Assembly (NCBI GenBank): GCA_964618545.1
Contig: CAZUBG010000001.1
Coordinates: forward strand, 2,885 to 66,884
DNA length: 64,000 nt
DNA from: an uncultured Bifidobacteriaceae bacterium
GTDB lineage: Bacteria > Verrucomicrobiota > Verrucomicrobiia > Limisphaerales > UBA11358
Direction: 5' to 3'
Part shown: in pieces, positions 30,639 to 61,606 of the stretch
Numbering within the stretch: the first letter of the stretch is position 1
Layout of the letters: each line of letters starts with the position of its first letter
The notes under the pieces: generated by a model
Databases searched by the model: none
What the model saw: only the letters and a program-made list of their open reading frames with translations
What the model was told of the DNA's origin: nothing
Made by a program: the position numbers and the translations under genes

Positions 30639-30645
30639 CCCCCAC

Positions 30646-43527: not shown

Positions 43528-43965
43528 AGTGTTTTTCCCCAACGGCGGCATGATAAAATCATAAAAACACATGAACACCACCCGAACCCGAAAAATCGTG
43601 GTCTGGCTCAACCGCCCCGCCAGCCTGCACAGCCTCCTTAAGCACGAATTGGGCGGCCACCCCGGCCGAACCGAACCTGTCCGTCTTGGATTTCCTCCTC
43701 GCCGGCTGCCTCCGCAGTCCAGGATAAGCCGGAGTCCAACACCGCAGGAAACGGAAAGAACCGGAAAAGAACAATTAAACACAATTAAAAAATCCAACCC
43801 GCCGTTCCGCCCCGGCGGCTTGCGCTTTACACTCTTTTCCCGGGAGCGTAGATTCTGACGACCTCCAAAATCGGATCGGGCCGGTTTTTGCCCGACGGCA
43901 GAAACCCGGAGGGAGACGGCAGCCATGGCGTGAGATCACCAAGCAAATTCAACCGACGGCGACGG

Positions 43966-46900
43966 ATGGGCGTTGGAACCTTTCAACTCGCCCTGCTGGC
44001 GTGGTTTTTTCTGATCCCGGCGGCCTTTGGGCGAGGCCCCGGCCCTCAATACCTGATTGACGTTTGGACGGCGGACAACGGACTGCCGGACAGCTCCGTC
44101 ACCGCCATCACGCAGACCCCCGACGGTTATCTCTGGGTCGGAACGTTCAACGGACTGGTGCGCTTTGACGGCTCCCGGTTTGTCACGTTCGATCCGGCGA
44201 ATGTTCCGGCCCTGGCCCATGCCCGGGTGCGCAAACTTTCGGTGGATGACCAGGGCACCCTGTTCATCAACACTTATGACGGTTCCCTGACCTCGTACCG
44301 GCGGGGGGTGTTCACGCGTGAATGGACGGGCCATGATGAAAAGGATCCGGATGTCAGTTTGATTTCATCGGGCTCCAATGAAGTCACGTTTCTGCTGCAC
44401 CGCGGATCGTTCCGCCGCCGGGCGCAAAATGTCGTGGCCGGCACCAATTGGGAGGACGTCGCGGTTTCCAGCCGGGTGGTTGCACCGCTGTGTCTGGCGG
44501 ATGGCAGCGGGACGATTTGGTATCGCGGTCTGGACCGGTCCTTATGGCGGCTGACCGGCAGTCAGTTCGCGTTGTTGCCCCCGGACGCCGGACTGGCGGG
44601 CCGCCAGATCAGTTGTCTGACCACGGATGCGACCGGACGTTTATGGGCGGGCACGGATCAGGGGATCGCGCGCTGGTCAGGCACGCGGTTTGAGACCGTC
44701 ACGCCCACCAACGGCGAACCGGTGCAGGACGTCAGCGTCCTGTCCATCAATGAGGACGGTTCTTATTGGGCGGTGGTCAATGGCGGTGTGTGGCGGGCCC
44801 GGGACCGCCGCTGGCTGCTGGAGGCGACGGCCCTGCGCAATGTGCTGACCGGCAGCCTGACCCAGATGGGCGCGCAACCGGACCACCAGGGCGGGGCGTG
44901 GTTCCACGAATATCAACGCGGTTTGTTCCATGTGGATGACCGGGGACAGGTGCGGCATTTCGATGCCGACCTGGGGTTCCCGGGCGACCGGATCAATTGT
45001 TTTTTTGAGGATCATGAGGGCAATTGGTGGGCGGGTCTGGATGCCGGCGGCCTGGTCCGGATCCGGGAGCGGCGGTTTCAAACGGTGGCGGAGGGGCAGG
45101 AATTGTCATTCAAACCGGCCAAGTCGGTGTGTGAGGACGCCCAAGGGACGGTCTGGATTGGAACGCTGGGGAACGGTTTGGAATCATTGTCAAGCGAAGG
45201 GACGCTCAACACGCTGCCGATCCCCGGGGACCAGAGCGCGGCGTTTGTCTTCAGCGTTTATCCGGATGCGGCGGGGCGGTTGTGGGTGAGCGCGGGGCTG
45301 GAGGATTTGTTTGTGCTGACTGCGGGTGGAATCGAACGCGTCTCTCCGGTGGTGCATGGGGTGAAAACCATTTTGGCGGATCATGCCGGTGACGTCTGGG
45401 TGGGAACCAAGAATGGTTTGTTTGTCTCCAATCCCGATGCGCCCATGGATTTCAACCTGATCGAGGGGGTCGGACGGGTGGATGTGCGGGCGCTGGCGGA
45501 AGACCGGCGGGGCGTGCTGTGGGCGGGGTCGGAGGACGGCACATTGTTTCTGATCACCAACGGGGTGGTCACGCCCTTTCAGCCGACGGATGCCCCGGCC
45601 TCGTCGCAAGCCATTTGGTCGCTGTTGCCCGATGAGGATGGGAGCGTTTGGGCGGGAACATCGCGGGGCGGGCTGCTGCGGTTCCAAAACGGACGGTTCA
45701 CCCGTTTCGGGAAGCGCGAGGGGCTGCCGGACAACGTTATTTCCCAGATCCTTGATGATGGCAAGGGAAACCTGTGGCTGGGATCCTATCAGGGAATCTT
45801 CCATGTGGCCAAGGCGGCGCTGAGAGAGGCCGGCACCAATTTGATCCCTTGCACCGTCTATGGCCATTCCGACGGTTTGCCCTCCCTAGAGTGTTCCGGC
45901 GGTTACCAACCGGCGGCCTGGCGGGGACAGGACGGGCGTTTGTGGTTCACCACGCTCAAGGGGGTGGTTTCCGTCCAACCCGCCGATTTGCACACCAACC
46001 TCCTGCCGCCGCCCGTGGTCATCGAAGACGTGTTGTTGGACGGTCACAGCCTGCTGTCCTCCACGTCAACGCAGATTCATCCCGAAAACGCGGCCGGCGG
46101 CATTGATCCCGCGCAGCCATGGGTGATCCCACCCGGCAAACATCAGTTCGTCTTCCAATACACAGGCATCAGCCTGGTGTCCTCGGAACGCGTCAAATTT
46201 CGTTACCAGCTTGAAAACGAGGATGCCGGCTGGATTGAGGCCGGCAACCGGCGGTCGGCCCAGTACAGTTATCTGCCCCCCGGGGCCTACCGGTTTCATG
46301 TCATCGCCTGCAACAGCGATGGAATCTGGAATCTGACCGGGGACGCGGTGAAGCTGAAAGTGCTGCCGCATTTTTACGAGTTGGGGTGGTTCCGGCTGCT
46401 GTCGGGAATCTTCATCATCGGAGTGGTCTCGGGCATCCTCCGGCACCTGGCGATGCTGCGCCTGGGCCGGAAAATGGAGCAGTTGGAACGGCAGCATCTG
46501 CTGGAGCGCGAACGCACCCGCATTGCCAAGGACATACACGATGATCTGGGCGCCAGTCTGACGCTCATTGCCGTGCTGGGGGATCTGGCCCGGAAGGAAA
46601 AAACCGGCGACCGGATTGAGAAAATGTCGGGCATGGCGCGCCAGGCGGTGAAGTCGTTGGACGAAATAGTTTGGGCGGTGAATCCGCGCAACGACACACT
46701 GGCCCATCTGATTGATTACACCGGACAATTTGCCACGGATTATCTGCGGGACGCGGGCATCCGCTGCCTGCTGGATGTGCCGGAACAAACGCCCGCGCGC
46801 GAAGTGCCCGCCAATATGAGGCACAACCTTTTTCTGACCGTCAAGGAAGCGCTGCAAAACATCGTGAAACACGCCCGTGCCACCGAGGTCTGGCTGCGGG

Positions 46901-47100
46901 TTTGCGCCACGGATCAAAGCCTGAAGATCGTGGTGGAGGACAATGGCTGCGGTTTTGAGAATCCACCGGAAAACGCGCTGGCAGACGGGCTGCGCAACAT
47001 GCGCCAGCGGTTGGAGGAGATCAAGGCGCATTATCAGATACAAAGCCGCCCGGGGGCGGGCACGGTGATCACCATTGAAGTTTGCTGGCCGTCCGCCTGA
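43966..47100 (+). CDS. sensor histidine kinase with periplasmic beta-propeller/Y_Y_Y-type sensor domain and HisKA_3 + HATPase core
   Basis: Repeated ...LW(V/A)GT..GL... propeller blades, one TM helix (WFRLLSGIFIIGVVSGIL), an H-box RIAKDIHDDLGASLT, and an ATPase region (GCGF...GLRNMRQRL). The ATG at 43966 precedes the signal/TM segment. Confidence 0.85.
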   Translation: MGVGTFQLALLAWFFLIPAAFGRGPGPQYLIDVWTADNGLPDSSVTAITQTPDGYLWVGTFNGLVRFDGSRFVTFDPANVPALAHARVRKLSVDDQGTLFINTYDGSLTSYRRGVFTREWTGHDEKDPDVSLISSGSNEVTFLLHRGSFRRRAQNVVAGTNWEDVAVSSRVVAPLCLADGSGTIWYRGLDRSLWRLTGSQFALLPPDAGLAGRQISCLTTDATGRLWAGTDQGIARWSGTRFETVTPTNGEPVQDVSVLSINEDGSYWAVVNGGVWRARDRRWLLEATALRNVLTGSLTQMGAQPDHQGGAWFHEYQRGLFHVDDRGQVRHFDADLGFPGDRINCFFEDHEGNWWAGLDAGGLVRIRERRFQTVAEGQELSFKPAKSVCEDAQGTVWIGTLGNGLESLSSEGTLNTLPIPGDQSAAFVFSVYPDAAGRLWVSAGLEDLFVLTAGGIERVSPVVHGVKTILADHAGDVWVGTKNGLFVSNPDAPMDFNLIEGVGRVDVRALAEDRRGVLWAGSEDGTLFLITNGVVTPFQPTDAPASSQAIWSLLPDEDGSVWAGTSRGGLLRFQNGRFTRFGKREGLPDNVISQILDDGKGNLWLGSYQGIFHVAKAALREAGTNLIPCTVYGHSDGLPSLECSGGYQPAAWRGQDGRLWFTTLKGVVSVQPADLHTNLLPPPVVIEDVLLDGHSLLSSTSTQIHPENAAGGIDPAQPWVIPPGKHQFVFQYTGISLVSSERVKFRYQLENEDAGWIEAGNRRSAQYSYLPPGAYRFHVIACNSDGIWNLTGDAVKLKVLPHFYELGWFRLLSGIFIIGVVSGILRHLAMLRLGRKMEQLERQHLLERERTRIAKDIHDDLGASLTLIAVLGDLARKEKTGDRIEKMSGMARQAVKSLDEIVWAVNPRNDTLAHLIDYTGQFATDYLRDAGIRCLLDVPEQTPAREVPANMRHNLFLTVKEALQNIVKHARATEVWLRVCATDQSLKIVVEDNGCGFENPPENALADGLRNMRQRLEEIKAHYQIQSRPGAGTVITIEVCWPSA

Positions 47101-47176
47101 AACCAGAAGTCATATCTTTATCCGATGGCCGTCATGAAAATCTGTCCTAAACTTGAAGAAAGCAGTCAGCCGTCAA

Positions 47177-47806
47177 ATGAGCATTAAAATATCCATCGTG
47201 GAAGACCAGCCGGACATGCGTCAAAGCCTGGTCGAGTGGCTGGATCATGCCCACGGGCTGCGTTGTGTGGGGTCACACGCCTCGGCGGAGGAGGCGTTGG
47301 AACTCATCCCTGCGGAGAATCCAGACGTGGTTTTGATGGATATCAACCTGAACGGCATGAGCGGCATCGAATGCGTGTCCCGGTTGAAGGACAAATCGCC
47401 CGCCATCCAGGTGCTGATGCTGACGACCTATGAGGACGGGGACACGATTTTCGACTCCCTGCGGGCCGGGGCCAACGGTTACCTGCTCAAAAACATGCCG
47501 CGCGAGGAGTTGGTGCAGGCGGTCGAACAGGTGCATTTGGGCGGATCGCCGATGTCGCTGCAGATTGCCCGCAAGGTGATCAATTATTTTCACCGCGACA
47601 GCAAGTCAGCTTCTGAATTGGAACATCTCACGGCGCGGGAACTGGAGATTTTACGATTGCTCGCGAAGGGCTACATGTACAAGGAGATTGCCGACCAACT
47701 GACCATCAGCATGAGCACGGTGCGGACGCATGTCAGCGCCATCTACGAGAAACTGCACGTGCAGTCCCGGACGGCGGCGGCGATGAAGCTGATCGGCCGG
47801 GAATAG
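47177..47806 (+). CDS. NarL/LuxR-family response regulator
   Basis: REC domain (ISIVEDQPDMRQ...DVVLMDINLNGMSG) plus a GerE/LuxR HTH (LTARELEILRLLAKGYMYKEIADQLTISMSTVRTHVSAIYEKL). Confidence 0.9.
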   Translation: MSIKISIVEDQPDMRQSLVEWLDHAHGLRCVGSHASAEEALELIPAENPDVVLMDINLNGMSGIECVSRLKDKSPAIQVLMLTTYEDGDTIFDSLRAGANGYLLKNMPREELVQAVEQVHLGGSPMSLQIARKVINYFHRDSKSASELEHLTARELEILRLLAKGYMYKEIADQLTISMSTVRTHVSAIYEKLHVQSRTAAAMKLIGRE

Positions 47807-47994
47807 GCAAAAGTCCGCCAAAACCTGCCGGCAAAAAAACAAATCCGGGTCGTTCCCGTTACCCAGTCAGGCCCCCGGGATCACCACCGGGCAAATTGCA
47901 CACTCCGGGCGCGTTGACTTGCAAAACGATCAGCGGTTTGGCCGGCAGGCGGTGAAAAGGGGCCGGATTTCGGACAAACCGCCGGTGAACGGGC

Positions 47995-48010
47995 TGGCAC
48001 AGAAACGGCT
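47995..48010 (+). promoter_or_regulatory. sigma54-type -24/-12 promoter upstream of the otsA-otsB fusion
   Basis: TGGCACagaaacgGCTA with canonical GG/GC spacing. The ATG is at 48028. Confidence 0.5.
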
Positions 48011-48027
48011 AAGACCACGCCAGGATT

Positions 48028-50268
48028 ATGAGGCTGGTCGTTATTTCCAACCGGTTGCCATTCACGGTGACGTTACAGGACAACTCGCCGCAGTTCAAGC
48101 CCAGCGCGGGCGGTTTGGCCACCGGCTTGTGGAGTTATCTGGATCGCAAGCCGGCCCACGGCGCGGTGCCACAGGAGCACCTTTGGATGGGCTGGCCCGG
48201 CACCGACATTCCGGCCGAGCACGAGGCGGCGGTGCGGGCGCATGCCGAACAGGAATTTAAGGCCAGCCCGGTGTTCGTCCCGGCGGAGAAGATGGACCGG
48301 TTTTATCTTGGTTTTTGCAACAAGACGCTCTGGCCGCTGTTTCATTACTTTCCTACTCTGACGCATTACGATGAGCAGTACTGGCAGGAGTACCGGCAGG
48401 TGAACCGGATTTTTGCGGAGGCGGCGGTCAAAGTTCTGAAGCCGGACGATTTGCTTTGGGTCCATGATTACCATCTGATGCTGGCGCCCAGAATGGTGCG
48501 GGAAAAATTCCCGGAACTGCTGATCGGATTTTTCCCGCACATCCCCTTTCCGTCCTGGGAAATCTTCCGGATGCTGCCGCGTCCCTGGCGCGAGGAAATC
48601 ATCGAAGGGCTCCTGGGGGCCAGTCTGGTTGGCTTCCACACGCACGATTATGTCCAGTATTTTCTGACCTCGGTGCTGCGCACGGTTGGCCATGAACATC
48701 AACTCGGGAGTCTGGCGCTGCGCGACCGCGCGGTGAAGGCGGACACGTTCCCGATGGGGGTGGAGTTTGATCGTTTTGCACAGGCGGCGGCGTCCAAGGA
48801 GACCGAACTACAGATGGAAAAGCTGCGGCAGACGTGCCTCGGGCAGAAGGTGATTTTTTCCGTGGACCGGCTGGATTACACCAAGGGACTGATCAACCGG
48901 CTGCGGGGGTACGAATTATTCTTGGAGCTTAATCCGCAGTGGCACGGCCGGGTGGTGTTCATCATTTCGGTGGCCCCGTCGCGGATCGGGGTGGACAGCT
49001 ACCAGACGATGAAGCTGGAACTGGAGCAGACGGTGGGCCGGATCGCCGGGAATTTCGGCAACGTGCATTGGACGCCGTTGATTTACCAGTACCGCAACCT
49101 GACCTTTGAGGAAATCGTGCCGCTGTACCGCCTGTGCGACGTGGCGCTCATCACACCGTTGCGCGACGGGATGAACCTGGTGGCGAAGGAATTCGTGGCG
49201 TCGCGTCCGGATCAGACCGGGGTGTTGATTCTGAGCGAGATGGCGGGGGCCGCGAAGGAAATGGGCGAGGCGCTGATCGTCAACCCGTTTCACCGTGAGG
49301 ATTTTGCAAAAATGCTGGAACAGGCGCTGACGATGCCGCGGGAGGAGCAAATCCGGCGGAACCAACTGATGCGGGAACGACTGCGCCGTTACAATGTCGT
49401 GCGCTGGGCGGAGGATTTTGTGCAGGCCCTGTGGGCCACGCAGAAGGCGGAGGCGGCCCGGCGGGCGCGAGCGCTGACAGGGGGGGCGCTGGCGACTTTT
49501 ATCCGGCAGTACCACGCGGCCGCAGAGCGGGCGTTGCTGCTGGATTATGACGGGACGCTGGTGCCATTTGCGACTGAGCCGCGACTGGCCCAGCCGGATC
49601 GGGAACTGATCGAGCTGCTCACTGCGTTGGGCTCTGATCCCGCAAATCAAGTGGCCATCGTCAGCGGCCGGCCCCGAAACACGCTGGAGGAATGGTTCGG
49701 CGGGCTGCCCATTTCCCTGATTGCCGAACACGGGGTCTGGCTGCGGAAGCAAGACTCGGACTGGCGCCTGTTGAAAAGCATGAGCGGTGACTGGAAGGAA
49801 GGGGTGCGTCCCCTGCTTCAGCTTTTCGTGGACCGGCTGCCGGGCGCGTTGCTGGAGGAGAAGGAATTTTCACTGGCATGGCACTACCGGCGCGCCGATC
49901 CGGAGCAGGCTTCGCTGCGCGCCAAGGAGCTGCTGGATGATCTGGCGGGTTACACGCGGAACATTGATGTGCAGGTCTTTAATGGCAAGAAGGTGGTGGA
50001 AGTGCGAAACTCGGGGATCAACAAAGGCAGCGCCGCGCTGGAATGGCTGGCCGGCCGGACCCCGGAGTTCGTTCTCGGCATCGGGGACGACTGGACAGAC
50101 GAGGATTTGTTCCGGGCGCTGCCGCCGACCGCCTTCACGGTGCGCGTGGGCGCGGCGGCCACGGCGGCAAATCATTATCTGGCCACGCACACCGCCGTGC
50201 GGCGGCTGCTCCGGGAATTAAGCGAAGCTCCTCGTGCAAAAGTCCATGAAGCCATCCCGGTCAAGTAA
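48028..50268 (+). CDS. otsA: bifunctional trehalose-6-phosphate synthase / phosphatase (OtsA-OtsB fusion)
   Basis: GT20 N-terminal region ([14 protein letters not shown]..., [28 protein letters not shown]) plus a HAD phosphatase C-terminus ([12 protein letters not shown]...[10 protein letters not shown]). Confidence 0.9.
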
Positions 50269-53200
50269 TGGATCGGCCGCGCCCAACGGGGAACGGTTCT
50301 GGTATAAAAGCGGGGTGATTTACGAGGTGCATGTCCGGGCGTTTTACGATGCGAACGGGGATGGCACCGGGGATTTTCGCGGGCTCATCGAGAAGCTGGA
50401 CTACATTCATGACCTCGGGGTGACGGCGATCTGGCTGCTGCCGTTTTATCCGTCACCGCTGAAGGACGACGGCTATGACATCGCCGACTACTGCAACGTG
50501 CATCCGATGTACGGCACCCTGGCCGATTTCAAACAGTTTCTGGCCGGGGCGCATGAGCGAGGGCTGCGGGTCATCACGGAACTGGTGTTGAACCACACTT
50601 CGGACCAGCATCCCTGGTTCCAGCGCGCGCGCCGGGCGAAACCGGGCAGCCGCCGGCGGAATTTTTATGTCTGGAGCGATGACCCGCACCGGTTCAAGGA
50701 CGCCCCGGTGCTGTTCAACGGGGTGGAAGTTTCCAATTGGACGCTCGACCCGGTGGCGGGCACGTATTTCTGGCACCGATTTTTTTCGCATCAACCGGAT
50801 TTGAATTTTGACGAGCCCGCGGTGCGCGCGGCGATTTTAAAGGCGGTGGATTTCTGGCTCGACCTGGGGGTGGATGGGCTGCGGCTGGACGCGGTTCCGT
50901 ATCTTTATGAGCGCGAGGGCACTCCCTGCGAAAACCTGCCGGAGACCCACGCTTTTCTGAAAACGCTGCGGGCCCATGTGGATGAAAAATACGGAAACCG
51001 GATGCTGCTGGCGGAGGCGAACTTGTGGCCGGAGGACGCGGTTTCGTACTTTGGCCGGGGCGCGGGGGATGAGTGTCACATGGCGTTTCACTTTCCACTG
51101 ATGCCCCGATTGTTCATGGCGCTGCGCATGGAGGACCGGCTGCCCATCGTGGAAATTCTGGAGCAGACGCCGGCGATCCCGGAGACCAGCCAGTGGGCGC
51201 TGTTCCTGCGCAATCATGACGAGCTGACGCTGGGCACGGTTTCGGACGAGGAGCGCGACTACATGTACCGGATGTATGCGCGGGTGCATCAGGCGCGCCT
51301 GTATCTGGGCATCCGCCGCCGGCTGGCCCCGCTGTTGAACAATGATCGCAAAAGCATTGAACTGCTCAACGCGCTGCTGTTTTCCCTGCCCGGCACGCCG
51401 GTGCTGTATTATGGGGATGAAATCGGGCTGGGGGACAACATCTACCTGGGCGACCGGGACGGGGTGCGCACGCCAATGCAATGGAGCGCGGATAAGAATG
51501 CGGGTTTTTCCCGGGCGAACCCGCAGAGCCTTTACCTGCCGATCATCCTCGAACCAGCCTACCATTACGAGGCGAACAACGTGGAAGTGCAACTGGACAA
51601 CCCGCACTCGCTGTTGTGGTGGATGCGCCGGCTGCTGGCGCTGCGCAAGCGCTGGCGCGCGCTGGGGGAAGGGAAGTGCGAATTTCTGCAACCGGGCAAC
51701 GACAAGATCATCAGCTACATTCTGCGCCACGAACAGGAGGTCATTCTGGTGGTGGCCAATCTTTCCCGCTTCGCCCAACCGGTGGAACTGGAGCTGGCGG
51801 CGTTCCGACACCTGACCCCCACCGAACTGTTTGGCCGGATGAAATTCCCGGTGATCACGGAGGCGCCGTATTCCCTGACGCTGGGGCCGCACAATTTTTT
51901 CTGGTTTTCGTTGGAAGCCAAACCTTCGTCCCCACCGACGATGGCCGCGCCGACGGGGGCGGAGCCGCCGCCCGAGCTGACCGTCAATGAGGAATGGAGG
52001 GAGATCTTCACCGGCTCCGCCCGGTTAAAACTGGAGCTAATCCTGCCCGACCGCCTGAAAGCGCAGCCGTGGTTTTCCGGCGGAGCCAGGACCATCAAGC
52101 TGGTCACGATCAAAGAAGCCTTCAGTGTGGCCCTGCCGGAGTCTCAAACGGCGGTGCTGGCCTTTCTTCAGGTCGAATATGTGGAGACCAATCCGGAGTT
52201 GTATGTGCTGCCCATGGCTTTTGCACCCGGACAAGGTACGCAGCGATTGCAGTCCGGGGGCATTGCCCGGCTGACGCGGCCGGATGGCAGCCCGTTCGGG
52301 ATGCTGGGGGACGCCTTTGCCGTCCCGGCGTTTGCCCGGGCGCTGCTCGGACAGGTCCGGAACCGTGGGCGTTTGCGCAACGCGCATGGAGAAATCGAGG
52401 CCACCCGCACGACGGCGCTGCGACAGACCATCGAGGGCGAGAATCCGCCCGATCCGGTCGTCCACCAGACCTCCGAGGGCAACGTCACGCTGCTTTTTGG
52501 CGATCAAATGGTCGTGAAGTTTTTCCGACGCATCAGTCCCGGGGTGAATCCAGAACTGGAAATTGGAAATCTGCTCACCGGAAAACATTTCCCGAACAGC
52601 CCGCCGCTGCTGGGGGCGCTGGAATACCACGGAGCAGACCAGAGTCCCATGACGCTCGCGGTGGCCCGGGCTTTTGTCCCGCACGCCCGGAATGGCTGGG
52701 AATTCACGTTGGAGGCCATTGGACGGTATTACGAGGGCGTGGTCGCCGAGGTGGCCCAAGGGCATGGCCCCCCCGCCGACCCCGCTGAAGACTCCGAATT
52801 GATCGGAACTTATCTGGAATCGGCACGGCTGCTGGGGGTGAGGACGGCCGAACTCCACCTGGCCCTGGCGTCCGGCCCGCCGGGGGGCGAGTTTTCCATC
52901 GAACCCATGACGCTGCAATACCTCCGGGGACTGTTTCAATCCATGCGCTCACTGGCGCTGAAGAACCTGCGCCGGTTGCGGAAACAAATAAAAACCCTGC
53001 CGGCGGACCTGGCACCGGTCGCCCAGCGGGTGCTGGAACTGGAACCAGTCATCCTGCGGTACTATCACGAATTGGTGGGACAACGCCTCAGCGCGGGCCG
53101 CATCCGTATCCACGGTGACTTTCATCTTGGCCAGGTGCTGTGGACGGGCCGGGATTTCATGTTTCTGGACTTTGAAGGCGACGTGAAGCTGCCCATCAGC

Positions 53201-53632
53201 GAACGCCGCATCAAACGATCGCCGCTGCGTGATGTGGCGCGCATGCTGCGTTCGTTTCATCACGCCACCTATGCCGGGTTCCATCAGCAGGCGGAATGCG
53301 GGGTGATTTCCCGGGAGAACCCGCCGCATTTCGAGCCGTGGGTACGGCATTGGAACCGGGCGGTGAGCCGCGCTTATGTTCAGTCCTACTGCCAGAGTCT
53401 GGCCCCCTCGGGGATCCTCCCGGGTGAGGAGGACAAGCTCCACCTGATCCTGGTGGACTATCTGCTCAATCAGGTGCTCGGGGAACTGGGCGAGGAATTG
53501 CAGCGCCGCTCCGACCAAGTGCGCGCCCCGTTGCAGGCCATCATCCACCTCACCGATGAGCAGATGCTGCGGCACATCACCGGCACCCATGGCGGAAAAC
53601 CCGCCGGACCGCCTAAACCATCAACCGGTTAG
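50234..53632 (+). CDS. treS: trehalose synthase (maltose alpha-D-glucosyltransferase) fused to maltokinase
   Basis: GH13 TreS motifs (WYKSGVIYEVHVRAFYDANGDGTGDF, GLRLDAVPYL, FLRNHDELTL), then a C-terminal ~450-aa kinase-like region (RIHGDFHLGQVLW, FLDFEGD). The start may be the ATG at 50246. Confidence 0.9.
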   Translation: MQKSMKPSRSSNGSAAPNGERFWYKSGVIYEVHVRAFYDANGDGTGDFRGLIEKLDYIHDLGVTAIWLLPFYPSPLKDDGYDIADYCNVHPMYGTLADFKQFLAGAHERGLRVITELVLNHTSDQHPWFQRARRAKPGSRRRNFYVWSDDPHRFKDAPVLFNGVEVSNWTLDPVAGTYFWHRFFSHQPDLNFDEPAVRAAILKAVDFWLDLGVDGLRLDAVPYLYEREGTPCENLPETHAFLKTLRAHVDEKYGNRMLLAEANLWPEDAVSYFGRGAGDECHMAFHFPLMPRLFMALRMEDRLPIVEILEQTPAIPETSQWALFLRNHDELTLGTVSDEERDYMYRMYARVHQARLYLGIRRRLAPLLNNDRKSIELLNALLFSLPGTPVLYYGDEIGLGDNIYLGDRDGVRTPMQWSADKNAGFSRANPQSLYLPIILEPAYHYEANNVEVQLDNPHSLLWWMRRLLALRKRWRALGEGKCEFLQPGNDKIISYILRHEQEVILVVANLSRFAQPVELELAAFRHLTPTELFGRMKFPVITEAPYSLTLGPHNFFWFSLEAKPSSPPTMAAPTGAEPPPELTVNEEWREIFTGSARLKLELILPDRLKAQPWFSGGARTIKLVTIKEAFSVALPESQTAVLAFLQVEYVETNPELYVLPMAFAPGQGTQRLQSGGIARLTRPDGSPFGMLGDAFAVPAFARALLGQVRNRGRLRNAHGEIEATRTTALRQTIEGENPPDPVVHQTSEGNVTLLFGDQMVVKFFRRISPGVNPELEIGNLLTGKHFPNSPPLLGALEYHGADQSPMTLAVARAFVPHARNGWEFTLEAIGRYYEGVVAEVAQGHGPPADPAEDSELIGTYLESARLLGVRTAELHLALASGPPGGEFSIEPMTLQYLRGLFQSMRSLALKNLRRLRKQIKTLPADLAPVAQRVLELEPVILRYYHELVGQRLSAGRIRIHGDFHLGQVLWTGRDFMFLDFEGDVKLPISERRIKRSPLRDVARMLRSFHHATYAGFHQQAECGVISRENPPHFEPWVRHWNRAVSRAYVQSYCQSLAPSGILPGEEDKLHLILVDYLLNQVLGELGEELQRRSDQVRAPLQAIIHLTDEQMLRHITGTHGGKPAGPPKPSTG

Positions 53633-53748
53633 TGCAGGATGCAACCCATCCCGATCGCATCTTGCGGATTGCAGGCTGAGCCGCCGGCAACGCCCGCCTC
53701 CGCCCGCCGAATGTCCCGGTTTCACCGGTCGGACGCGACTGAGGCCAT

Positions 53749-53764
53749 TGGCACGAAGCGAGCT
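53749..53764 (+). promoter_or_regulatory. sigma54-type -24/-12 promoter upstream of the small membrane protein gene
   Basis: TGGCACgaagcgaGCTA. The ATG is at 53848. Confidence 0.5.
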
Positions 53765-53847
53765 AGGTTAATACACCCTATGCCAAATCACCGATTGAAC
53801 AGTCTGGCTGGCCAGCTTGGACTAACCATCACAACGGGGAACCAACT

Positions 53848-53994
53848 ATGCTCTACACCCTCGCCTTAATCCTGATCATTGCCTGGCTGCTGGGATTTGT
53901 TTCATCCTACACCCTGGGCGGCTTCATCCACATACTGTTGGTCATCGCCCTCATTTTGGTCCTTGTGCGGCTGATTCAGGGCCATAGACTATGA
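53848..53994 (+). CDS. lmo0937-family small membrane protein (not in the ORF track, 48 aa)
   Basis: My own translation is MLYTLALILIIAWLLGFVSSYTLGGFIHILLVIALILVLVRLIQGHRL*. It matches the family pattern WLLGF...YTLGG.IH.LLVIA......RLIQG.R. Confidence 0.75.
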   Translation: MLYTLALILIIAWLLGFVSSYTLGGFIHILLVIALILVLVRLIQGHRL

Positions 53995-54680: not shown

Positions 54681-55125
54681 AACACTGTTCAGAAAAGGGG
54701 GTTCGGAATGTCTAAAATGACGGTTGGCGGCACCGGATGATTTTTCCCCATCCATGGGCTCATCCCGTGCCAACTTGAAAATCACATTGTTTCGCGGTCT
54801 CGCCCGCGAAATGCATTGCCCTGTGCAAATCCCGGCCCGGCCACTGCCGGTCTGCCGTCCGGCCCAATGGGCCGTGATTGCTGCGCCCAGTCTGGCGGCT
54901 CCGATCTGTCCGCCGCCAAAGCCTGCGGCCTGAGGGCCGCCACCATCCATGCCAGTGTATCCACGCAACATCCATTCGTCCCGGCGTCCCTGCCATTCCG
55001 TCCGGCCACTGAGCATCGAACAACCAAGGGTCTTCTGAAGTCAAAAGAGCTTTCCCAAGTTCTATCTTCATGATAACTCGCCAGTTTTAGTAGTCAATAT
55101 TATTTGGCTTATTATTCAGATAATT

Positions 55126-55653
55126 TTATTTTGGTGTCGAACCCGGATCACGGCGCCGCCGGTCCGACGGGGCGATTGGATTTTCAGCCTGGACGGACTC
55201 CGCTTGCCGGGGCGTGGGATGCACGCGGAACGTCTTCGGCTCCTCCGCGAGATGTTCAAGGACTCTTAAGGCCAGTTCCTCATGGTCGGTGCGGACCGCC
55301 AAATCCCGCAGGGAAATGATGCCCACCAAATGTTCATGCCGATCCAAAACCGGCAGCCGGCGAACATGATGCGATTCCATCATGCTGGCGGCCTCCTCCT
55401 GCTCCTGATCCGCAAAGCAGTACAGGATCAGCCGGCTCATCACCCGGCGAACCACCGTCTTGTCCGGATCCAGCCCGTTGGCGACCGCCCGAATGGCAAT
55501 ATCCCGGTCGGTCAGCACACCCACCAACCGGTTTTCCTTTAAGACGGGCAAAATCCCCACGTTCCGCGCCTTCATCTGTCTGGCCGCCTGCTGCAGCGTC
55601 TCCTCCGGACCGATCCATTGCGGATCAGGGGTCATGATCTCAATGTTTTTCAT
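55126..55653 (-). CDS. CBS-domain pair protein
   Basis: Two CBS repeats (IMTPDPQWIGPEETLQQAARQMKARNVGILPV...GVLTDRDI and ...AASMMESHHVRRLPVLDRHEHLVGIISLRDL). Confidence 0.85.
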   Translation of the reverse strand: MKNIEIMTPDPQWIGPEETLQQAARQMKARNVGILPVLKENRLVGVLTDRDIAIRAVANGLDPDKTVVRRVMSRLILYCFADQEQEEAASMMESHHVRRLPVLDRHEHLVGIISLRDLAVRTDHEELALRVLEHLAEEPKTFRVHPTPRQAESVQAENPIAPSDRRRRDPGSTPK

Positions 55654-55832
55654 GGTGTTTTCACATGATGAATCTTGGTCCGGACCTGCCCGGTTCGTCG
55701 CTGAATGCGCCCGATCAATTCATCCTCCTTGCCCTTTATAAACTGCCGGTCGTCGTGGGTGAACCGGGCCAACTGCTGTTCCAAGCGGCCTTTGGCAATG
55801 TACCAGATTCCTTTGGCTTGGAGCATGTTCAT
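55650..55832 (-). CDS. CsbD-like general stress protein
   Basis: 60 aa starting MNMLQAKGIWYIAKGRLEQQLARFTHDDRQFIKGKEDELIGRIQRRTG, which fits the CsbD pattern. The stop overlaps the CBS gene ATG (ATGA). Confidence 0.65.
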   Translation of the reverse strand: MNMLQAKGIWYIAKGRLEQQLARFTHDDRQFIKGKEDELIGRIQRRTGQVRTKIHHVKTP

Positions 55833-56099
55833 ACGTTTGTCAGCAACCCTGGTCAACTGGCCCATCGGCGTGCGGATCCGGGTGATGCCAGTTCCTTTTA
55901 GCAAAGACCGCGCCAACCCGGACCGGCCCCTGATTCCAATCGAAATCACCGCAAACTGACTCCACGGGGTCCGATGCAAACTGCAATCTGCAACCGCGCG
56001 GGGGAGCATATTTTGCAATCTGCAACCCGCCCGGTCCGCCCGATTTGACACGCCATCAAGCCATGCTTATTGTGACCATGAGACGGATTATTGCCCGGC

Positions 56100-56128
56100 T
56101 GGACAAACCGGATGAAGAGCGCTATAAT
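56100..56128 (+). promoter_or_regulatory. sigma70-type promoter of the CHASE3 kinase operon
   Basis: TGGACA (56100-56105), a 17-nt spacer, TATAAT (56123-56128), 54 nt before the ATG at 56183. Confidence 0.45.
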
Positions 56129-56182
56129 CAGGTGCATCCGCCATCCGGGGACGGGGATGGCTTCAGGGCAGGCGGGTGGACG

Positions 56183-58318
56183 ATGCTTAAAGAACCCAAC
56201 AAGCAAATTTATAAGGCAGTGGTGGTCGTGTGGCTGACCCTTTCACTGGGGAGCGTGTTGTTGGCGGCGGCCAACTGGTCGCAACTTTCCCGACTGGTCA
56301 TTGCCGGCCGGCAGGAGACTGGCGTTCGGGAAAACCTGGAACAAATCCTCAAGCTGCTGCTGGACGCCGAAACGGCGGCGCGGGGCTACGTCATCACCGG
56401 CGACAAGAAATTCCTCGGACCGTTGAATGAAACGGAGACGAATCTGCCAGCTTGTTTTGACGCCCTGGCCCAGGCCGCCCCGGAGGAAACCGAACTGCTG
56501 GAAAAGTTTACGGTTCTGCACACCCAGGCCGTGGTGTGCCTGAGCTGGCAATTCAAACTCACCGCCACCCGGGACCGCAGTTTTGGCCGGGCCTCCGACC
56601 TGATGATGACGGGCGAGGGGAAAACGCTGATGGACGGCATCCGCGATCAGGTGGCGAATCTTGGCAAAATCCTGCAAGAACGGCAGGCGAAGCTTCGCGG
56701 GGAAGTGGGAACCCAGTTGTTTCGGGTCGGCCTGACGAGTCTGTGGGCGGGGATTCTGGCCATTGGCTTCGGAGTCTATGCCTTCTGGCTGTCGCGCCTG
56801 ACCTTGAAACATCAAAAGCGGGAGGGGGAGTTAATGGAGGACAAGTTGCGGGCGGAGCACAGCAACAAGGAAAAGAATGTGTTTTTGGCCAATATGAGCC
56901 ATGAAATCCGCACGCCGATGAACGCCATCCTCGGTTTCAGCGAACTGCTGCTGGAGGATTTGCGCGAGCCCCGGCAGCGCCAGTACCTCCAATCCATCCA
57001 GACCAGCGCGAACTCACTGCTCCTGCTCATCAACGACATTCTGGACGTGTCAAAAATCGAGGCCGGGGTCATGCAATTACGCCCCGAACCGACCGATCCG
57101 CGTGAGATCAGTGATCTCATCCGAACCCTGTTTGCCGAACCGGCCGCCAAGAAAGGCATCCGGTTGGAGTGCCAGGTGGCGCCGGATTTGCCCCGGGCCC
57201 TGCTGGTGGATCGCATCCGGCTCCGCCAGATTCTCGTCAATCTGGTTGGCAACGCGGTCAAATTCACGGACGTGGGGATGGTGGAAACGCGGGTGACGTG
57301 GATCAAACAAGCGAATGGCGGCCATCTGACGCTGGTCATTGAAGTGCAGGACACCGGGGTCGGCATTCCACCGGACAAGCTGGCCGTCATTTTCCAGCCG
57401 TTCACCCAGGTGGGCAACCATCGGGAAAAGGAAACCCAGGGGACGGGGCTGGGTCTGGCCATCGTCAAACGCCTGGTCGAACTCATGGGGGGGACGGTGA
57501 CCGTGGCAAGCGTGCCGGGCCAGGGATCGGTGTTTCACCTGCGCATTCCGGACGTGGCCATTTCGGCGCGCCTGGCCAGCGCCGAGAAAGTCCATTCCCG
57601 GGCAGAGGTCAATTTTGATGAACTCGCCCCGGCCACCCTGCTCGTGGTGGATGACTATGAGTTGAACCGCCAGTTGATCGCCGGCATGTTCGCCGACACG
57701 CATCACCGCCTGTTGTTTGCCGCCAGCGGCGAGGAAGCCCTGATCCAGGCGCGCGCCGACAAACCCGACCTCCTGCTCATGGACCTCCGACTGCAGGGCA
57801 TGAGCGGACAGGAGACGCTGGTGGAAATTCGCAAAATCAACGGCCTGGAATTGATGCCCGTCCTGGCCGTGACCGCCGCCAGCCTGACGGAGGCCGAAAA
57901 CTCATTGCCGGAGCACTTCAGCGGTTATGTGCGCAAGCCCTTCACCAAGCGTGAACTCTTTGAGGAACTCGCCGGATTCCTGCCCACCCGGACGGCGGCG
58001 GAAGCCGCGTGGATTCCACCCGCGCCCGGAACCTCCCTGGAATACTCCGCCCCGGTTCCCCGGGAATTGCTCGCCCAATTGCGCCAGCAGCTCATCCACC
58101 CCTGGCCGTCCCTGCGCGACAGCGTCGCGGTCAACGACAGCCGCGTCTTTGCCCAGGGATTGGAAGGCCTGGGCCGGCGCTGGCAATGTCCGGCCCTGAT
58201 CGGCTACGCGCAAACCCTGTTGAGTGACGTGGAGAATTACGCGGTGGCGGATTTGGAAACCCACCTGGGCCAATTTGCCGCCTTGGTCGAAGAACTGGTC
58301 CGCCACACCCCTGAATGA
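56183..58318 (+). CDS. hybrid sensor histidine kinase (CHASE3 sensor, HisKA, HATPase, REC, degenerate Hpt-like tail)
   Basis: CHASE3-like N-terminal region (LLLDAETAARGYVITGDKKFLGP), H-box FLANMSHEIRTPMNAILGF, G-boxes (DTGVGIP, GTGLGLAIVKRLV), and a REC domain (LLVVDDYELNRQ...LLLMDLRLQGMSG). Confidence 0.85.
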   Translation: MLKEPNKQIYKAVVVVWLTLSLGSVLLAAANWSQLSRLVIAGRQETGVRENLEQILKLLLDAETAARGYVITGDKKFLGPLNETETNLPACFDALAQAAPEETELLEKFTVLHTQAVVCLSWQFKLTATRDRSFGRASDLMMTGEGKTLMDGIRDQVANLGKILQERQAKLRGEVGTQLFRVGLTSLWAGILAIGFGVYAFWLSRLTLKHQKREGELMEDKLRAEHSNKEKNVFLANMSHEIRTPMNAILGFSELLLEDLREPRQRQYLQSIQTSANSLLLLINDILDVSKIEAGVMQLRPEPTDPREISDLIRTLFAEPAAKKGIRLECQVAPDLPRALLVDRIRLRQILVNLVGNAVKFTDVGMVETRVTWIKQANGGHLTLVIEVQDTGVGIPPDKLAVIFQPFTQVGNHREKETQGTGLGLAIVKRLVELMGGTVTVASVPGQGSVFHLRIPDVAISARLASAEKVHSRAEVNFDELAPATLLVVDDYELNRQLIAGMFADTHHRLLFAASGEEALIQARADKPDLLLMDLRLQGMSGQETLVEIRKINGLELMPVLAVTAASLTEAENSLPEHFSGYVRKPFTKRELFEELAGFLPTRTAAEAAWIPPAPGTSLEYSAPVPRELLAQLRQQLIHPWPSLRDSVAVNDSRVFAQGLEGLGRRWQCPALIGYAQTLLSDVENYAVADLETHLGQFAALVEELVRHTPE

Positions 58319-59481
58319 ATCCTGATTTATACCCAAACGACCCCCGGCCCGACCGGCCGGAGGAATGGCCGCGCACCGTTTTCGCCGAGGCCGGCCCGGC
58401 GTGCATTCTGGTGGTGGACGACCAACCGTCCAATATTCAGATGGTGGGGTCCGTGCTGGGGCGGCTGGGGCATGAAATCCTCCCGGCGTTTGACGGGGAA
58501 ACCGCCCTGAAGCGAGTGGCGGTGCGCCCTCCGGATTTGATCCTGCTCGACCTGCTGATGCCCGAGATGGACGGTTTTGACGTTTGCCGGCAGTTGAAGG
58601 CCAGTCCGGCCTGGCGGGACATCCCCATCATTTTTCTCTCCGCCGCCGACGACAAGGATCTGATCGTGCGCGCGTTGAACGCCGGCGGCGTTGACTACAT
58701 CACCAAACCGTTCAACCAGGCGGAGCTCGTCTCCCGCGCGCGCACGCAACTGGCGCTGAAAACCGCGCGCGACCAGCTCCGGCAACTGGCGGAAGACAAG
58801 GACGAACTGCTGGGAATTCTGGCCCATGATTTGAAAAATTACCTGGGCGGCATGAACCTGACCGCCCAGTTGTTGTTCGACCGCATCAAATCCGGTCCCG
58901 ACGCGCGGCTGGCCCACCTCGCGGAGAACATCCTGCGTTCGAGCGATCAATCCCTGACCTTTGTGAAGAAATTCCTCGCCAATGCGGCGGCCGAGCACCG
59001 CCTGGCCGTCAAACCGGGCGTCTTCAATCTCACCGAGGTCGCCGCCGGGGTCATCCGGCAGTACCAGGATGCCGCCCGGCGGAAACAATTGCAAATCCGG
59101 ACCGATTTTCCAACGGAACCGGTTCTGGCGCTGGGGGACGTCTCGGCACTCGACCAGGTGCTGGACAACCTGCTGTCCAACGCGCTGAAGTTTTCTCCGC
59201 CGGGGAAAAAGGTGCAGGTCAGCATCCGGCCGGCCGGCCGGCGGGTCGAGTGCCTTGTCCGGGATGAAGGCCCCGGTTTCACGGTTGAAGACCAGGCCGC
59301 CATGTTTCACCGTTACAAACGACTTTCGGCCCGGCCGACCGGGGGGGAGCCGTCCACGGGCCTGGGTCTGAGCATTGTGCGCAAACTGGTGCTGGCCATG
59401 AACGGGGAGTTGTCGTGTGAGAGTGAACCGGGAAAGGGGGCAAGCTTCACCATCCGCCTGCCGGGTTCGGAGGCAAACTGA
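58315..59481 (+). CDS. response-regulator receiver fused to a histidine kinase core
   Basis: REC domain (ILVVDDQPSNIQ...LILLDLLMPEMDG), H-box LGILAHDLKNYLGG, and an ATPase region (DEGPGF, GLGLSIVRKLV). The ATG overlaps the upstream stop (ATGA at 58315-58318). Confidence 0.85.
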   Translation: MNPDLYPNDPRPDRPEEWPRTVFAEAGPACILVVDDQPSNIQMVGSVLGRLGHEILPAFDGETALKRVAVRPPDLILLDLLMPEMDGFDVCRQLKASPAWRDIPIIFLSAADDKDLIVRALNAGGVDYITKPFNQAELVSRARTQLALKTARDQLRQLAEDKDELLGILAHDLKNYLGGMNLTAQLLFDRIKSGPDARLAHLAENILRSSDQSLTFVKKFLANAAAEHRLAVKPGVFNLTEVAAGVIRQYQDAARRKQLQIRTDFPTEPVLALGDVSALDQVLDNLLSNALKFSPPGKKVQVSIRPAGRRVECLVRDEGPGFTVEDQAAMFHRYKRLSARPTGGEPSTGLGLSIVRKLVLAMNGELSCESEPGKGASFTIRLPGSEAN

Positions 59482-59490: not shown

Positions 59491-60855
59491 ATGATGAATT
59501 TTTTGGTGGTGGATGACGAGCAGACCTTTCGGGAGGCCACTTGCTTTCTCATCGGAGAGACCGGACACATGGCGGAGGGCGCGGCGGCCGGCCCGCCCGC
59601 CCTGGCGGCGCTGAAGCAGGAGACCTTTGACGCCGTGCTGCTGGATCTGAACCTCGGCCAGGAAAGCGGCCTCGACCTGCTGGTGACCCTGCAAAAACAG
59701 TTTCCCCAGATCCCCGTGGTCATGTGTACCGCCCAGGGCAGCGTGAAAAACGCCGTGGAAGCCATGCGGCGCGGGGCGGTTGATTTTCTTGAAAAGCCCT
59801 TCCAGCGCGAACAGTTCCTGACGGTGCTGGCCCGGTTGCAGCGGCTGGGCCAGTTGAACCGGCAAATCGAGCAACTGGCGCGGCAGGTCAATGAAAACAA
59901 AACCCAGAGCCTCGAGCCCATTTTTGACTTCACCTCCCCCGCCATGCGCGACGTGATGGACCTGCTCCTGCGCGCTGCCAAAACGCCCGCCTCCATCATG
60001 ATTCTGGGGGAGACCGGCACCGGCAAGAGCGTCGCCGCGCGCGCGGTTCACGATCAAAGCCATCTGGCCGAGAAGCCGTTTGTCACGGTGAGCTGCCCAA
60101 GCCTCTCACGCGAGTTGCTGGAAAGCGAACTGTTTGGTCATGTCAAGGGTGCCTTCACCGGCGCCATCAAGGATCATTGGGGCAAAGTCCGGGCCGCCGA
60201 CGGAGGCACCCTGTTCTTGGACGAGATCGGCGATTTGCCCATGGAAATTCAGCCGAAACTGCTGCGTCTGCTGCAGGAGCGCGAATACGAGCGGTTGGGG
60301 GAAAATGTCACCCGCACCGCCACTCTGCGCGTCATCGCCGCGACGAATCGCGATTTGAAAAAACGCGTGGCCGAGGGCGGGTTCCGTGAGGATCTCTATT
60401 TTCGCCTCAATGTCATCACCGTTGAAATGCCGCCCCTGCGCATGCGGGACGGGGATTTGCTTCGCCTGGCCGCGCATTACGAGGAGTTTTTCGCCCGGCA
60501 ATGCGGCCGGCGCCCCGGCGGACTTTCGCCCGGGGCGATCGCCTGCCTCCAGGCATACGGGTGGCCGGGCAACCTGCGGGAATTGCGGAACGTCATGGAG
60601 CGGGCCGTGATTCTCGCCCGCGGGGAGCAACTCATGCCGGAGGATTTCCCCGCCGAACTGCGCCTTCCGCCGCCCGCCGCCCGGGCCGCAGCCGATCCGC
60701 TCCCACCCGGTGCCATGGTCTCCCTGGAAACATTGGAGGAGGCTCATTTGCGAAAAGTCCTGGAACAAACCAAAAACCTGTCTGACGCCGCCGCCGTGCT
60801 CGGCATTGACCAGGCCACCCTGTACCGGAAACGCAAGAAACTGGGCCTGGAATGA
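59491..60855 (+). CDS. sigma54-dependent (NtrC-family) response regulator
   Basis: REC domain, an AAA+ module with GETGTGKS, ESELFGHVKGAFTGA (GAFTGA loop) and GGTLFLDEIGDL, and a C-terminal Fis-type HTH (AAAVLGIDQATLYRKRKKLG). Confidence 0.92.
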   Translation: MMNFLVVDDEQTFREATCFLIGETGHMAEGAAAGPPALAALKQETFDAVLLDLNLGQESGLDLLVTLQKQFPQIPVVMCTAQGSVKNAVEAMRRGAVDFLEKPFQREQFLTVLARLQRLGQLNRQIEQLARQVNENKTQSLEPIFDFTSPAMRDVMDLLLRAAKTPASIMILGETGTGKSVAARAVHDQSHLAEKPFVTVSCPSLSRELLESELFGHVKGAFTGAIKDHWGKVRAADGGTLFLDEIGDLPMEIQPKLLRLLQEREYERLGENVTRTATLRVIAATNRDLKKRVAEGGFREDLYFRLNVITVEMPPLRMRDGDLLRLAAHYEEFFARQCGRRPGGLSPGAIACLQAYGWPGNLRELRNVMERAVILARGEQLMPEDFPAELRLPPPAARAAADPLPPGAMVSLETLEEAHLRKVLEQTKNLSDAAAVLGIDQATLYRKRKKLGLE

Positions 60856-61376: not shown

Positions 61377-61433
61377 AAACGGGCGACCGGTTGACGCTGC
61401 TTTCTATTAACATCAACGGAACCAAGGGGTTTT

Positions 61434-61449
61434 AGCACGCTCCATGCCA
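61434..61449 (-). promoter_or_regulatory. sigma54-type -24/-12 promoter of the lipoprotein gene
   Basis: The minus strand reads TGGCATggagcgtGCTA. The ATG is at 61376. Confidence 0.55.
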
Positions 61450-61510
61450 GCGCTTTGAAAGGCCAAAATCAACAATCCGGGGTCCGGGATTCATGCGAAA
61501 TGCAATTCCC

Positions 61511-61529
61511 GGGTTGCCGCTTGCAACCC
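61511..61529. promoter_or_regulatory. inverted repeat GGGTTGC-N5-GCAACCC, candidate enhancer (UAS) shared by the divergent sigma54 promoters
   Basis: Perfect 7-bp arms centred at 61520, the midpoint between the two -24 boxes (61449 and 61591). It is flanked by further TGCAAT (61501) and GGTTGC (61532) half-sites at ~10-bp phasing. Confidence 0.4.
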
Positions 61530-61590: not shown

Positions 61591-61606
61591 TGGCATGGCC
61601 CAAGCT
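61591..61606 (+). promoter_or_regulatory. sigma54-type -24/-12 promoter of the repeat-protein gene
   Basis: TGGCATggcccaaGCTA. The ATG is at 61647. Confidence 0.55.

Follow-up and report, generated by a model that had tools for sequence, protein, structure and literature searches.

Predicted sigma-54-dependent promoters with paired enhancer elements at trehalose and stress-type genes in an uncultured verrucomicrobial genome

Introduction

In Escherichia coli, the trehalose genes otsBA belong to the sigma-S genes, along with osmY (BON), elaB/yqjD (DUF883), yciE/F (DUF892), and dps, and in Bacillus the genes csbD and yflT are sigma-B genes. Transcript levels of lmo0937 are lower in sigB mutants of Listeria (PMC7690807), and in Synechocystis Sll1863 is among the top general stress proteins induced by salt (PMC8670252). 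Here, we analyzed promoter-type motifs located upstream of such genes in a stretch of 64,000 nucleotides, referred to as the window, from contig CAZUBG010000001.1 of an uncultured bacterium placed in the Limisphaerales of the Verrucomicrobiota (assembly GCA_964618545.1). Judging from the sequence, four such motifs and a fifth one at 55915-55899 are likely to be the -24/-12 promoters of a single stress-type regulon, which would depend on sigma-54 and an activator.

The gene content of this putative regulon overlaps strikingly with the regulons of sigma-S in E. coli, sigma-B in Bacillus and Listeria, and EcfG in the Alphaproteobacteria. The overlap includes trehalose synthesis of the otsBA type, CsbD/YjbJ, DUF883 (ElaB/YqjD), BON (OsmY), Dps, DUF892 (YciE/F), YflT, and lmo0937. 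However, sigma-S, sigma-B, and EcfG are alternative factors of the sigma-70 family that are regulated through proteolysis or partner switching, whereas the promoters studied here are of the -24/-12 type and would need an ATP-dependent activator.

The locus has its counterpart in the NtrC/glnAp2 system of the Enterobacteria, with which it shares GG at -24 and GC at -12 of the promoter, and an activator composed of a receiver (REC) domain, an AAA+ domain with the GAFTGA motif, and a Fis-type helix-turn-helix domain. The putative activator sites in the window are also paired about three helical turns apart, approximately 100-140 nt upstream of the start, and two sites at such a spacing and distance represent the classical NtrC enhancer layout. 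The NtrC binding site is TGCACC-N5-GGTGCA, whereas the element identified here is TTGCA-N2-TTGCA. Other differences are that the putative regulon is related to stress and trehalose rather than to nitrogen, that its candidate activator falls below the NtrC and AtoC equivalog cut-offs, and that AGCTA often takes the place of TTGCA in the -12 box.

PspF lacks a receiver domain and controls only the psp genes. The PspF/psp envelope-stress regulon and the osmotolerance linked to sigma-54 (SigL) in Listeria, cited in PMC3162934, are stress responses that depend on sigma-54, as proposed for the locus described here. Unlike the PspF/psp regulon, this locus has no psp genes. The sensor kinase RsbK carries a CHASE3 domain. 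The RsbK-RsbY system of Bacillus cereus (PMC9912610) controls sigma-B, and its general-stress pathway is headed by a hybrid sensor kinase, as proposed for our locus. The output of RsbK-RsbY is a PP2C phosphatase that acts on the sigma-B partner-switching module and not a sigma-54 activator. A broad comparative study of sigma-54 (PMC3162934) mentions neither trehalose nor Verrucomicrobia, and no account of such a sigma-54 stress regulon in Verrucomicrobia was found in full-text searches of the literature.

Results

Promoter-type motifs in the window

A sequence-only reading of the window had described four intergenic, correctly oriented sites with a shared GCTA, estimated that the full pattern should occur well under once by chance, and interpreted the sites as promoters of a sigma-54-dependent osmotic or envelope stress regulon. 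The window matches the JGI metagenome contig Ga0455670_0004538 (3300041809). A search of both strands of the 64-kb window with the pattern TGGCAYNNNNNNNGCTA (TGGCAY-N7-GCTA) yielded exactly 4 matches, located at 47995-48011 (+), 53749-53765 (+), 61449-61433 (-), and 61591-61607 (+). All 4 copies were intergenic and faced the next gene downstream, as described, but the motif is 17 nt long and the end coordinates had therefore been given one base short. The chance expectation calculated from shuffles was 0.11 per window, in agreement with the previous estimate, and none of 100 dinucleotide-preserving shuffles contained 4 matches. With one mismatch allowed, a fifth site, TGGCGCGGTCTTTGCTA, which the sequence-only reading had not listed, was identified at 55915-55899 (-) upstream of the csbD-CBS genes.

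The distance from the GG of the -24 box to the GC of the -12 box was exactly 10 nt at all 5 sites. Compared with the extended consensus TGGCAC-N5-TTGCW, the -24 half fitted, as either TGGCAY or CGGCAY, and TT ahead of the GC was present in only 1 of the 5 sites. The looser core TGGCAY-N7-GC had 15 matches in the window against 8.9 expected, and the additional ones were mostly located in coding sequence. One of these looser matches was both intergenic and correctly oriented (5860-5844 on the minus strand) and ended with GCTT. A position weight matrix (PWM) was built exclusively from 23 training sites in other genomes and then run over the window, where the 3 highest scores were obtained for the sites at 53749 (17.7, the best), 61433 (17.5), and 61591 (15.0).

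The paired upstream element

The element TTGCA-N2-TTGCA, here treated as a putative upstream activating sequence (UAS), usually occurred in 2 copies about 30 bp apart. Paired elements were located upstream of 4 of the 5 sites in the window, while the copy upstream of otsAB was degenerate. When up to 1 mismatch was allowed, TTGCNGATTGCA had 5 matches in the window, and all 5 were found 60-110 bp upstream of sigma-54-like sites. For the 12-mer TTGCANNTTGCA, 7 of the 12 merged matches fell within the 1.2% of the window that lies 20-200 nt upstream of the 5 sites, with a binomial p of 3e-11 that is illustrative only, since the motif was first noticed in those zones. With up to 2 mismatches allowed, a stricter 13-mer, TTGCAANTTGCAA, showed no enrichment in the window (7 matches versus 4.2 expected) and was set aside; the copies in the window fit the 12-mer better.

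We also applied a joint test, defined as a UAS located 20-200 nt upstream of a sigma-54-like core. Exactly 4 sites in the window were recovered, namely those at 53749, 55915, 61449, and 61591.

Conservation of the promoter and enhancer module in relatives

For comparison, we examined 7 loci around orthologs of the activator gene described below (L111 to L117) and 3 loci around close orthologs of OtsAB (L118 to L120). Spacing and base counts were taken from 36 sites in 11 loci. All 36 sites had the GG and the GC at a distance of exactly 10 nt, with a spacer of variable sequence between them. The UAS centers were located approximately 81-93 and 110-123 nt upstream of the T in the -24 box, with adjacent copies separated by 29-32 bp. 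The joint arrangement occurred at a frequency of 0.169 per kb in 9 of these loci; the 80 control loci gave 0.005 per kb, and a further 28 loci had none.

The module that recurred in the relatives consisted of YGGCAY-N7-GC preceded by one or, more often, 2 TTGCA-N2-TTGCA elements. The -24 box was often CGGCA rather than TGGCA, and the canonical TT before the GC was found in 12 of the 36 sites, mostly in csbD promoters, many of which use TTGC(A/T). The GC was followed by T in 25 and by TA in 15 of the 36 sites. GCTA is thus a preference and not a rule, and it does not define the promoter type.

Genes headed by the module in L111 to L117, L119, and L120 encoded CsbD, DUF5670, DUF883/holin_3_6, ferritin, BON, PRC-BON, DUF892, DUF3185, and DUF4142 proteins, among others. 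The genes around the activator orthologs comprised those for CsbD, DUF5670, CBS, DUF883 with Phage_holin_3_6 (YqjE-like), ferritin/Dps, BON, PRC-BON, and DUF892, as well as YflT, DUF3185, CBM48, DUF4142, an apolipoprotein-like or sll1863-like protein, GH57/amylase genes, and otsAB-treS. We noted that, for some of the predicted sigma-54 promoters in the relatives, a mere 12-13 nt separate the promoter end from the annotated start codon, as with those of the DUF5670 gene in L113 (6438, +) and the PRC-BON gene in L111 (16903, -), which would imply leaderless or near-leaderless transcripts, or mis-called starts.

The candidate activator and its kinases

Located between the sites at 53.7 kb and 61.5 kb are the genes for 2 histidine kinases and, directly downstream of these, a response regulator. 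The latter (59491-60855, +) belongs to the NtrC family of sigma-54 enhancer-binding regulators, with Pfam matches to REC, Sigma54_activat (E = 3.5e-65), the AAA lid, and HTH_8, and contains an intact GAFTGA motif (ESELFGHVKGAFTGA), with which such proteins contact sigma-54, and the Walker A sequence GETGTGKS. It was not mentioned in the sequence-only reading. The first kinase (56063-58318, +) is a hybrid protein with the domain order CHASE3-HisKA-HATPase-REC, and the second (58315-59481, +) has the order REC-HisKA-HATPase. The activator matched no NCBIfam equivalog; its best scores were 364 bits for AtoC (cut-off 714) and 361 bits for NtrC (cut-off 559). The name AlgB given to its family by JGI is a KEGG Orthology (KO) label only.

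The family of activator orthologs is large. The best 120 clusters were 74% to 100% identical to the activator and mostly assigned to Verrucomicrobiota, Verrucomicrobiae, or Limisphaerales, and the orthologs in metagenome-assembled genomes of Verrucomicrobiota were 74% to 82% identical. In the loci that were fetched, most orthologs were likewise preceded by a CHASE3 kinase and a REC-kinase. A search of metagenome contigs with the CHASE3 kinase recovered only distant kinases with identities of at most 37%, and no orthologs. Taken together, the activator of the putative regulon is most probably the regulator encoded at 59491-60855.

The trehalose genes

The motif at 47995-48011 (+), TGGCACAGAAACGGCTA, is here called P(otsAB). 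It matches the sigma-54 pattern and precedes a gene for a fused OtsA-OtsB protein, a trehalose-6-phosphate synthase/phosphatase (48028-50268, +; Pfam Glyco_transf_20 E = 7e-143, Trehalose_PPase E = 1e-50). This gene is followed by a treS-mak-like fusion gene (50234-53632, +) with Pfam matches to Alpha-amylase and Malt_amylase_C and a weak match to Mak_N_cap, for which the JGI gene call starts at 50246. Since the treS-mak-like gene overlaps the end of otsAB, the 2 genes probably form one operon. The GCTA of P(otsAB) is separated by 16 nt from the otsAB start codon at 48028, and the predicted transcript start at about 48021 would give a leader of about 7 nt. A start codon further upstream was excluded by the in-frame TAA within GCTAA and by the conserved N-terminus MRLVVISNR. 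The degenerate enhancer of otsAB (47890-47926, +) consists of GGCAAATTGCAC at 47890-47901 and TTGACTTGCAAAA at 47914-47926, about 99 and 74 nt upstream of the T in the -24 box, and aligns with an element in L118.

The relative L118, which originates from the same metagenome and encodes an OtsAB protein of 84% identity, has a homologous upstream region. In the alignment, an intact TTGCAAATTGCA in L118 corresponds to GGGCAAATTGCA in the window, and the CTGGCACA...GCT boxes are retained while the spacer has diverged. A segment of about 290 bp located between the sigma-54 promoter and otsAB in L118 (3024-3321), which contains a 67-amino acid lipoprotein-like open reading frame (ORF), is missing from the window (48011-48028), and the promoter is thereby fused to the otsAB start. 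The loss of this small gene, kept in L118, explains why P(otsAB) lies so close to the start codon.

In L119 and L120, the otsAB-treS genes form the end of csbD-CBM48-(CBS) gene strings that are headed by a sigma-54 csbD promoter, and in L120 the activator and kinase genes adjoin the csbD...otsAB-treS string. The trehalose genes are thus a recurrent part of this neighborhood. A search of genome contigs with TreS-Mak recovered 80 loci, in which the nearest Verrucomicrobiota were at most 65% identical and showed another synteny; these served only as negative controls and to assign the organism to the Verrucomicrobiota.

Directly upstream of otsAB and in the same orientation are the genes for a histidine kinase of the Reg_prop/Y_Y_Y type and a LuxR-type response regulator (43888-47806). 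This two-component system could provide a second input to the trehalose genes.

Other predicted targets

The promoter with the top PWM score in the window, P(DUF5670), is the pattern match TGGCACGAAGCGAGCTA at 53749-53765 (+). Its paired UAS (53633-53673) is formed by TTGCATCCTGCA at 53633-53644 on the minus strand and TTGCGGATTGCA at 53662-53673, whose centers precede the -24 box by 110 and 81 nt. The gene downstream (53848-53994, +) encodes a small membrane protein of 48 amino acids, which had previously been attributed to the lmo0937 family. This assignment was borne out by matches above the cut-offs to NCBIfam NF033488, lmo0937_fam_TM (62.4 bits, cut-off 30), and to Pfam PF18919, DUF5670 (E = 4e-16, 59.2 bits, cut-off 23.5).

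On the opposite strand, P(csbD-CBS), the site TGGCGCGGTCTTTGCTA at 55899-55915 (-), has a canonical TTGC in the -12 box and passes the joint test. It is located 66 nt upstream of a csbD-like ORF of 60 amino acids (55832-55650), which overlaps by ATGA with a gene for a tandem-CBS protein (55653-55126); together, the 2 genes span 55126-55832 (-). Its UAS cluster (55975-56025, -) contains tandem TTGCAGATTGCA repeats, with TTGCAGATTGCA at 56025-56014 and TTGCAGATTGCAGTTTGCA at 55993-55975. The longest ORF in this region (55650-56051, -; 133 amino acids) over-calls the csbD-like gene; the resemblance to CsbD is confined to the last 60 amino acids, and the over-called part contains the promoter and enhancer. 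In the JGI gene calls, the csbD-like gene is missing altogether.

Two divergent promoters are located at 61.4-61.6 kb. The first, P(sll1863-family), is the pattern match TGGCATGGAGCGTGCTA at 61433-61449 (-), with a PWM score of 17.5, and precedes the gene for a 148-amino acid lipoprotein (60930-61376, -) of the sll1863 family of stress response proteins (NCBIfam NF052504, 62.6 bits, cut-off 35). The second, P(284-aa gene), is the pattern match TGGCATGGCCCAAGCTA at 61591-61607 (+), with a PWM score of 15.0, and heads 3 genes (61647-63467, +), which probably constitute one operon: a gene for a secreted protein of 284 amino acids resembling CusF/DUF5666/DUF1344 (61647-62501), followed by ORFs of 116 and 189 amino acids to which no function was assigned. 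Between the promoters is a shared UAS (61494-61525), with TTGCATTTCGCA at 61505-61494 on the minus strand and TTGCCGCTTGCA at 61514-61525. The divergent region aligns with its counterpart in L117, in which both promoters, the second one as TGGCATGGGGCCAGCTA, and the UAS blocks AAATGCAA and CTTGCAA are conserved. We also noted a weak, palindromic match to the gabT RNA of Rfam on both strands at 62927-62980 (34 bits, gathering score 45), near the start of the 189-amino acid ORF (62898-63467), which is probably due to chance.

The neighboring genes had been characterized as stress-type on the basis of treS-mak, CsbD-like, CBS, and DUF2934 genes. The first 3 are indeed located nearby, but the DUF2934 ORF (27581-27835) is about 20 kb away and was rejected as a neighbor.

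Further sigma-54-like sites and other features of the window

The intergenic site with the looser core, TGGCATTTTCAAAGCTT at 5844-5860 (-), is located about 63 nt before the real ATG of a gene for a FAD-dependent halogenase-like protein, which is followed by a gene for an MMPL/lipid-A-acyltransferase fusion (749-4174). No TTGCA UAS was found at this site, and another activator may be responsible for it. At 54756-54772 (-), we also saw a weak core of the sigma-54 type, TGGCACGGGATGAGCCC, which ATGCATTTCGCG precedes by a few tens of nt. If this core is real, the flavodoxin-like ORF would start at the ATG at 54679 and not at 54755, as in the JGI call, or at 55016, as in the longest ORF.

Elsewhere in the window, a stretch at 28000-37100 has a GC content of 0.50-0.56, as compared with about 0.60 in the rest. 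It contains genes for a Mu-like prophage protein, a PBECR1 nuclease, an Eco57I-type methylase, a BsuBI/PstI restriction endonuclease, a GmrSD_N protein, and a RelA_SpoT-like ORF, and looks like an integrated mobile or defense island. Two proteins resembling extracytoplasmic function (ECF) sigma factors (Sigma70_r2/r4), encoded at 13245-15236 and 18395-19948, have long C-terminal extensions, one of which contains DUF3738.

Discussion

The earlier interpretation of the motifs as sigma-54-dependent promoters is supported by the spacing of GG and GC, the presence of a GAFTGA activator gene among the sites, the paired enhancer-like elements, and the conservation of the module in relatives. In the mechanism that we propose, a signal would be sensed by the CHASE3 kinase, and phosphoryl groups would probably reach the receiver domain of the activator either directly or via the REC-kinase. 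Next, the activator would bind to the paired TTGCA-N2-TTGCA elements, which are about 30 bp apart and whose centers precede the -24 box by approximately 80-90 and 110-120 nt, oligomerize there, and contact the closed sigma-54 complex through DNA looping, using ATP for opening. Remodeling of the sigma-54 holoenzyme at YGGCAY-N7-GC(T)W would switch on the target genes, which in the window would be otsAB-treS/mak, the gene for the lmo0937/DUF5670 protein, csbD-CBS, the gene for the sll1863-family lipoprotein, and that for the secreted CusF/DUF5666-like protein with the 2 downstream ORFs. In its gene content, this set resembles a general-stress, osmotic, or desiccation set.

Several observations weigh against this interpretation. 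The PWM alone discriminates poorly, with a mean maximum score of 15.1 in shuffled windows; as scores of about 15 are reached in shuffled sequence, it cannot call sites unaided, and the joint criterion of UAS and promoter was needed. The comparison is also partly circular, in that some of the sites in the relatives were picked by a regular expression that assumes the GG-N10-GC core. No rpoN gene was found within the 64-kb window. The assignment of the activator is based on adjacency and co-conservation, and other activators may be encoded in these genomes. Finally, in Verrucomicrobiota with TreS proteins of at most 65% identity, no such site or UAS was found near otsAB or treS, and the putative link between sigma-54 and the trehalose genes is therefore clade-specific.

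If the motif had instead arisen as a repeat by chance, or were an operator bound by an ordinary transcription factor, with no involvement of sigma-54, the lack of the canonical TT in the -12 half of 4 of the 5 window sites would be accounted for, as would the lack of an rpoN gene in the window. We consider this highly improbable given that GG and GC are invariant at a fixed distance in all 36 sites while the spacer varies, that the orientation always matches the downstream gene, that the GAFTGA activator is co-conserved with the sites, that a separate element, located at enhancer distance, can already serve as the factor-binding site, and that only 0.11 matches were expected by chance. Rfam gave no family match at the promoter sites, which also led us to drop an RNA element as an explanation. 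It is a more serious consideration, though still rather unlikely, that the promoters are of the sigma-54 type but that the regulon is a stationary-phase, starvation, desiccation, or dormancy program rather than an osmotic or envelope stress response, or that several activators each control a subset of the genes. The sensor has a CHASE3 domain without a known ligand, and the gene content fits general stress sets of the sigma-S and sigma-B types over a specifically osmotic set; trehalose synthesis and the sll1863 family are, however, classic salt and osmotic responders. Likewise, the site at 5860 without a TTGCA UAS suggests more than one activator, whereas a single type of UAS accompanies nearly all of the promoters.

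A narrower alternative applies to otsAB, namely that P(otsAB) is a decayed or non-functional remnant, with genuine sigma-54 promoters at the other sites, near 53.7, 55.9, and 61.5 kb. The deletion of the small upstream gene would have left the promoter too near the ATG, the enhancer would have degraded, and the trehalose genes would be transcribed by read-through or from an unrecognized promoter, perhaps under the LuxR-type two-component system at 43888-47806, which is encoded immediately upstream in the same orientation. P(otsAB) is indeed the weakest of the 5 sites, with a PWM score of 10.9 that ranks 11th in the window and is within the range of shuffled sequences, and its GC is preceded by a G, a base that was seen at this position in none of the 23 training sites. 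Because its UAS, GGGCAAATTGCA, carries 2 mismatches, the site fails the joint test. With the predicted leader of only about 7 nt, the AGGA sequence is situated only 2 nt from the ATG, and the otsAB genes of L119 and L120 lack a separate sigma-54 promoter. Nevertheless, the -24/-12 boxes and the enhancer core GCAAATTGCAC have been kept in L118 while the intervening sequence has diverged, and the trehalose genes of L119 and L120 are located inside stress clusters headed by sigma-54 promoters. Moreover, a sigma-70-like promoter for otsAB was rejected, as none was found in the 221-bp intergenic region, and the chance of a correctly oriented YGGCAY-N7-GCTW match in this one region was estimated at about 2e-3. 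Decay of the site therefore appears unlikely, and on sequence grounds P(otsAB) is probably a real sigma-54 promoter.

With regard to the regulon as a whole, the mechanism proposed here would be that of ordinary sigma-54/NtrC-type activation, but the content of the regulon looks new. A tentative hypothesis, which we regard as possible rather than probable, is that a large clade of Verrucomicrobiota (Limisphaerales/Pedosphaera-like) has a general stress response that is driven by sigma-54 and one dedicated, highly conserved activator of the NtrC type, which receives its input from a CHASE3 kinase cascade, and not by an alternative sigma-70-family factor such as sigma-S, sigma-B, or EcfG. If true, this would represent a further, enhancer-dependent wiring of the bacterial general stress response, for which the cis-code would already be defined as YGGCAY-N7-GCTW together with TTGCA-N2-TTGCA elements paired at about -105 and -135. 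It would be unusual in that stress genes controlled by sigma-S, sigma-B, or EcfG elsewhere, such as those for trehalose synthesis, CsbD, lmo0937, sll1863, DUF883, BON, Dps, and DUF892, appear to be tied to an all-or-none sigma-54 switch. The locus provides a testable model in which promoter, enhancer motif, candidate activator, and sensor kinase are all specified, in a phylum that is abundant in soil and freshwater and has seen little genetic work, and the paired motif may be used for predicting the stress regulon in hundreds of uncultured genomes.

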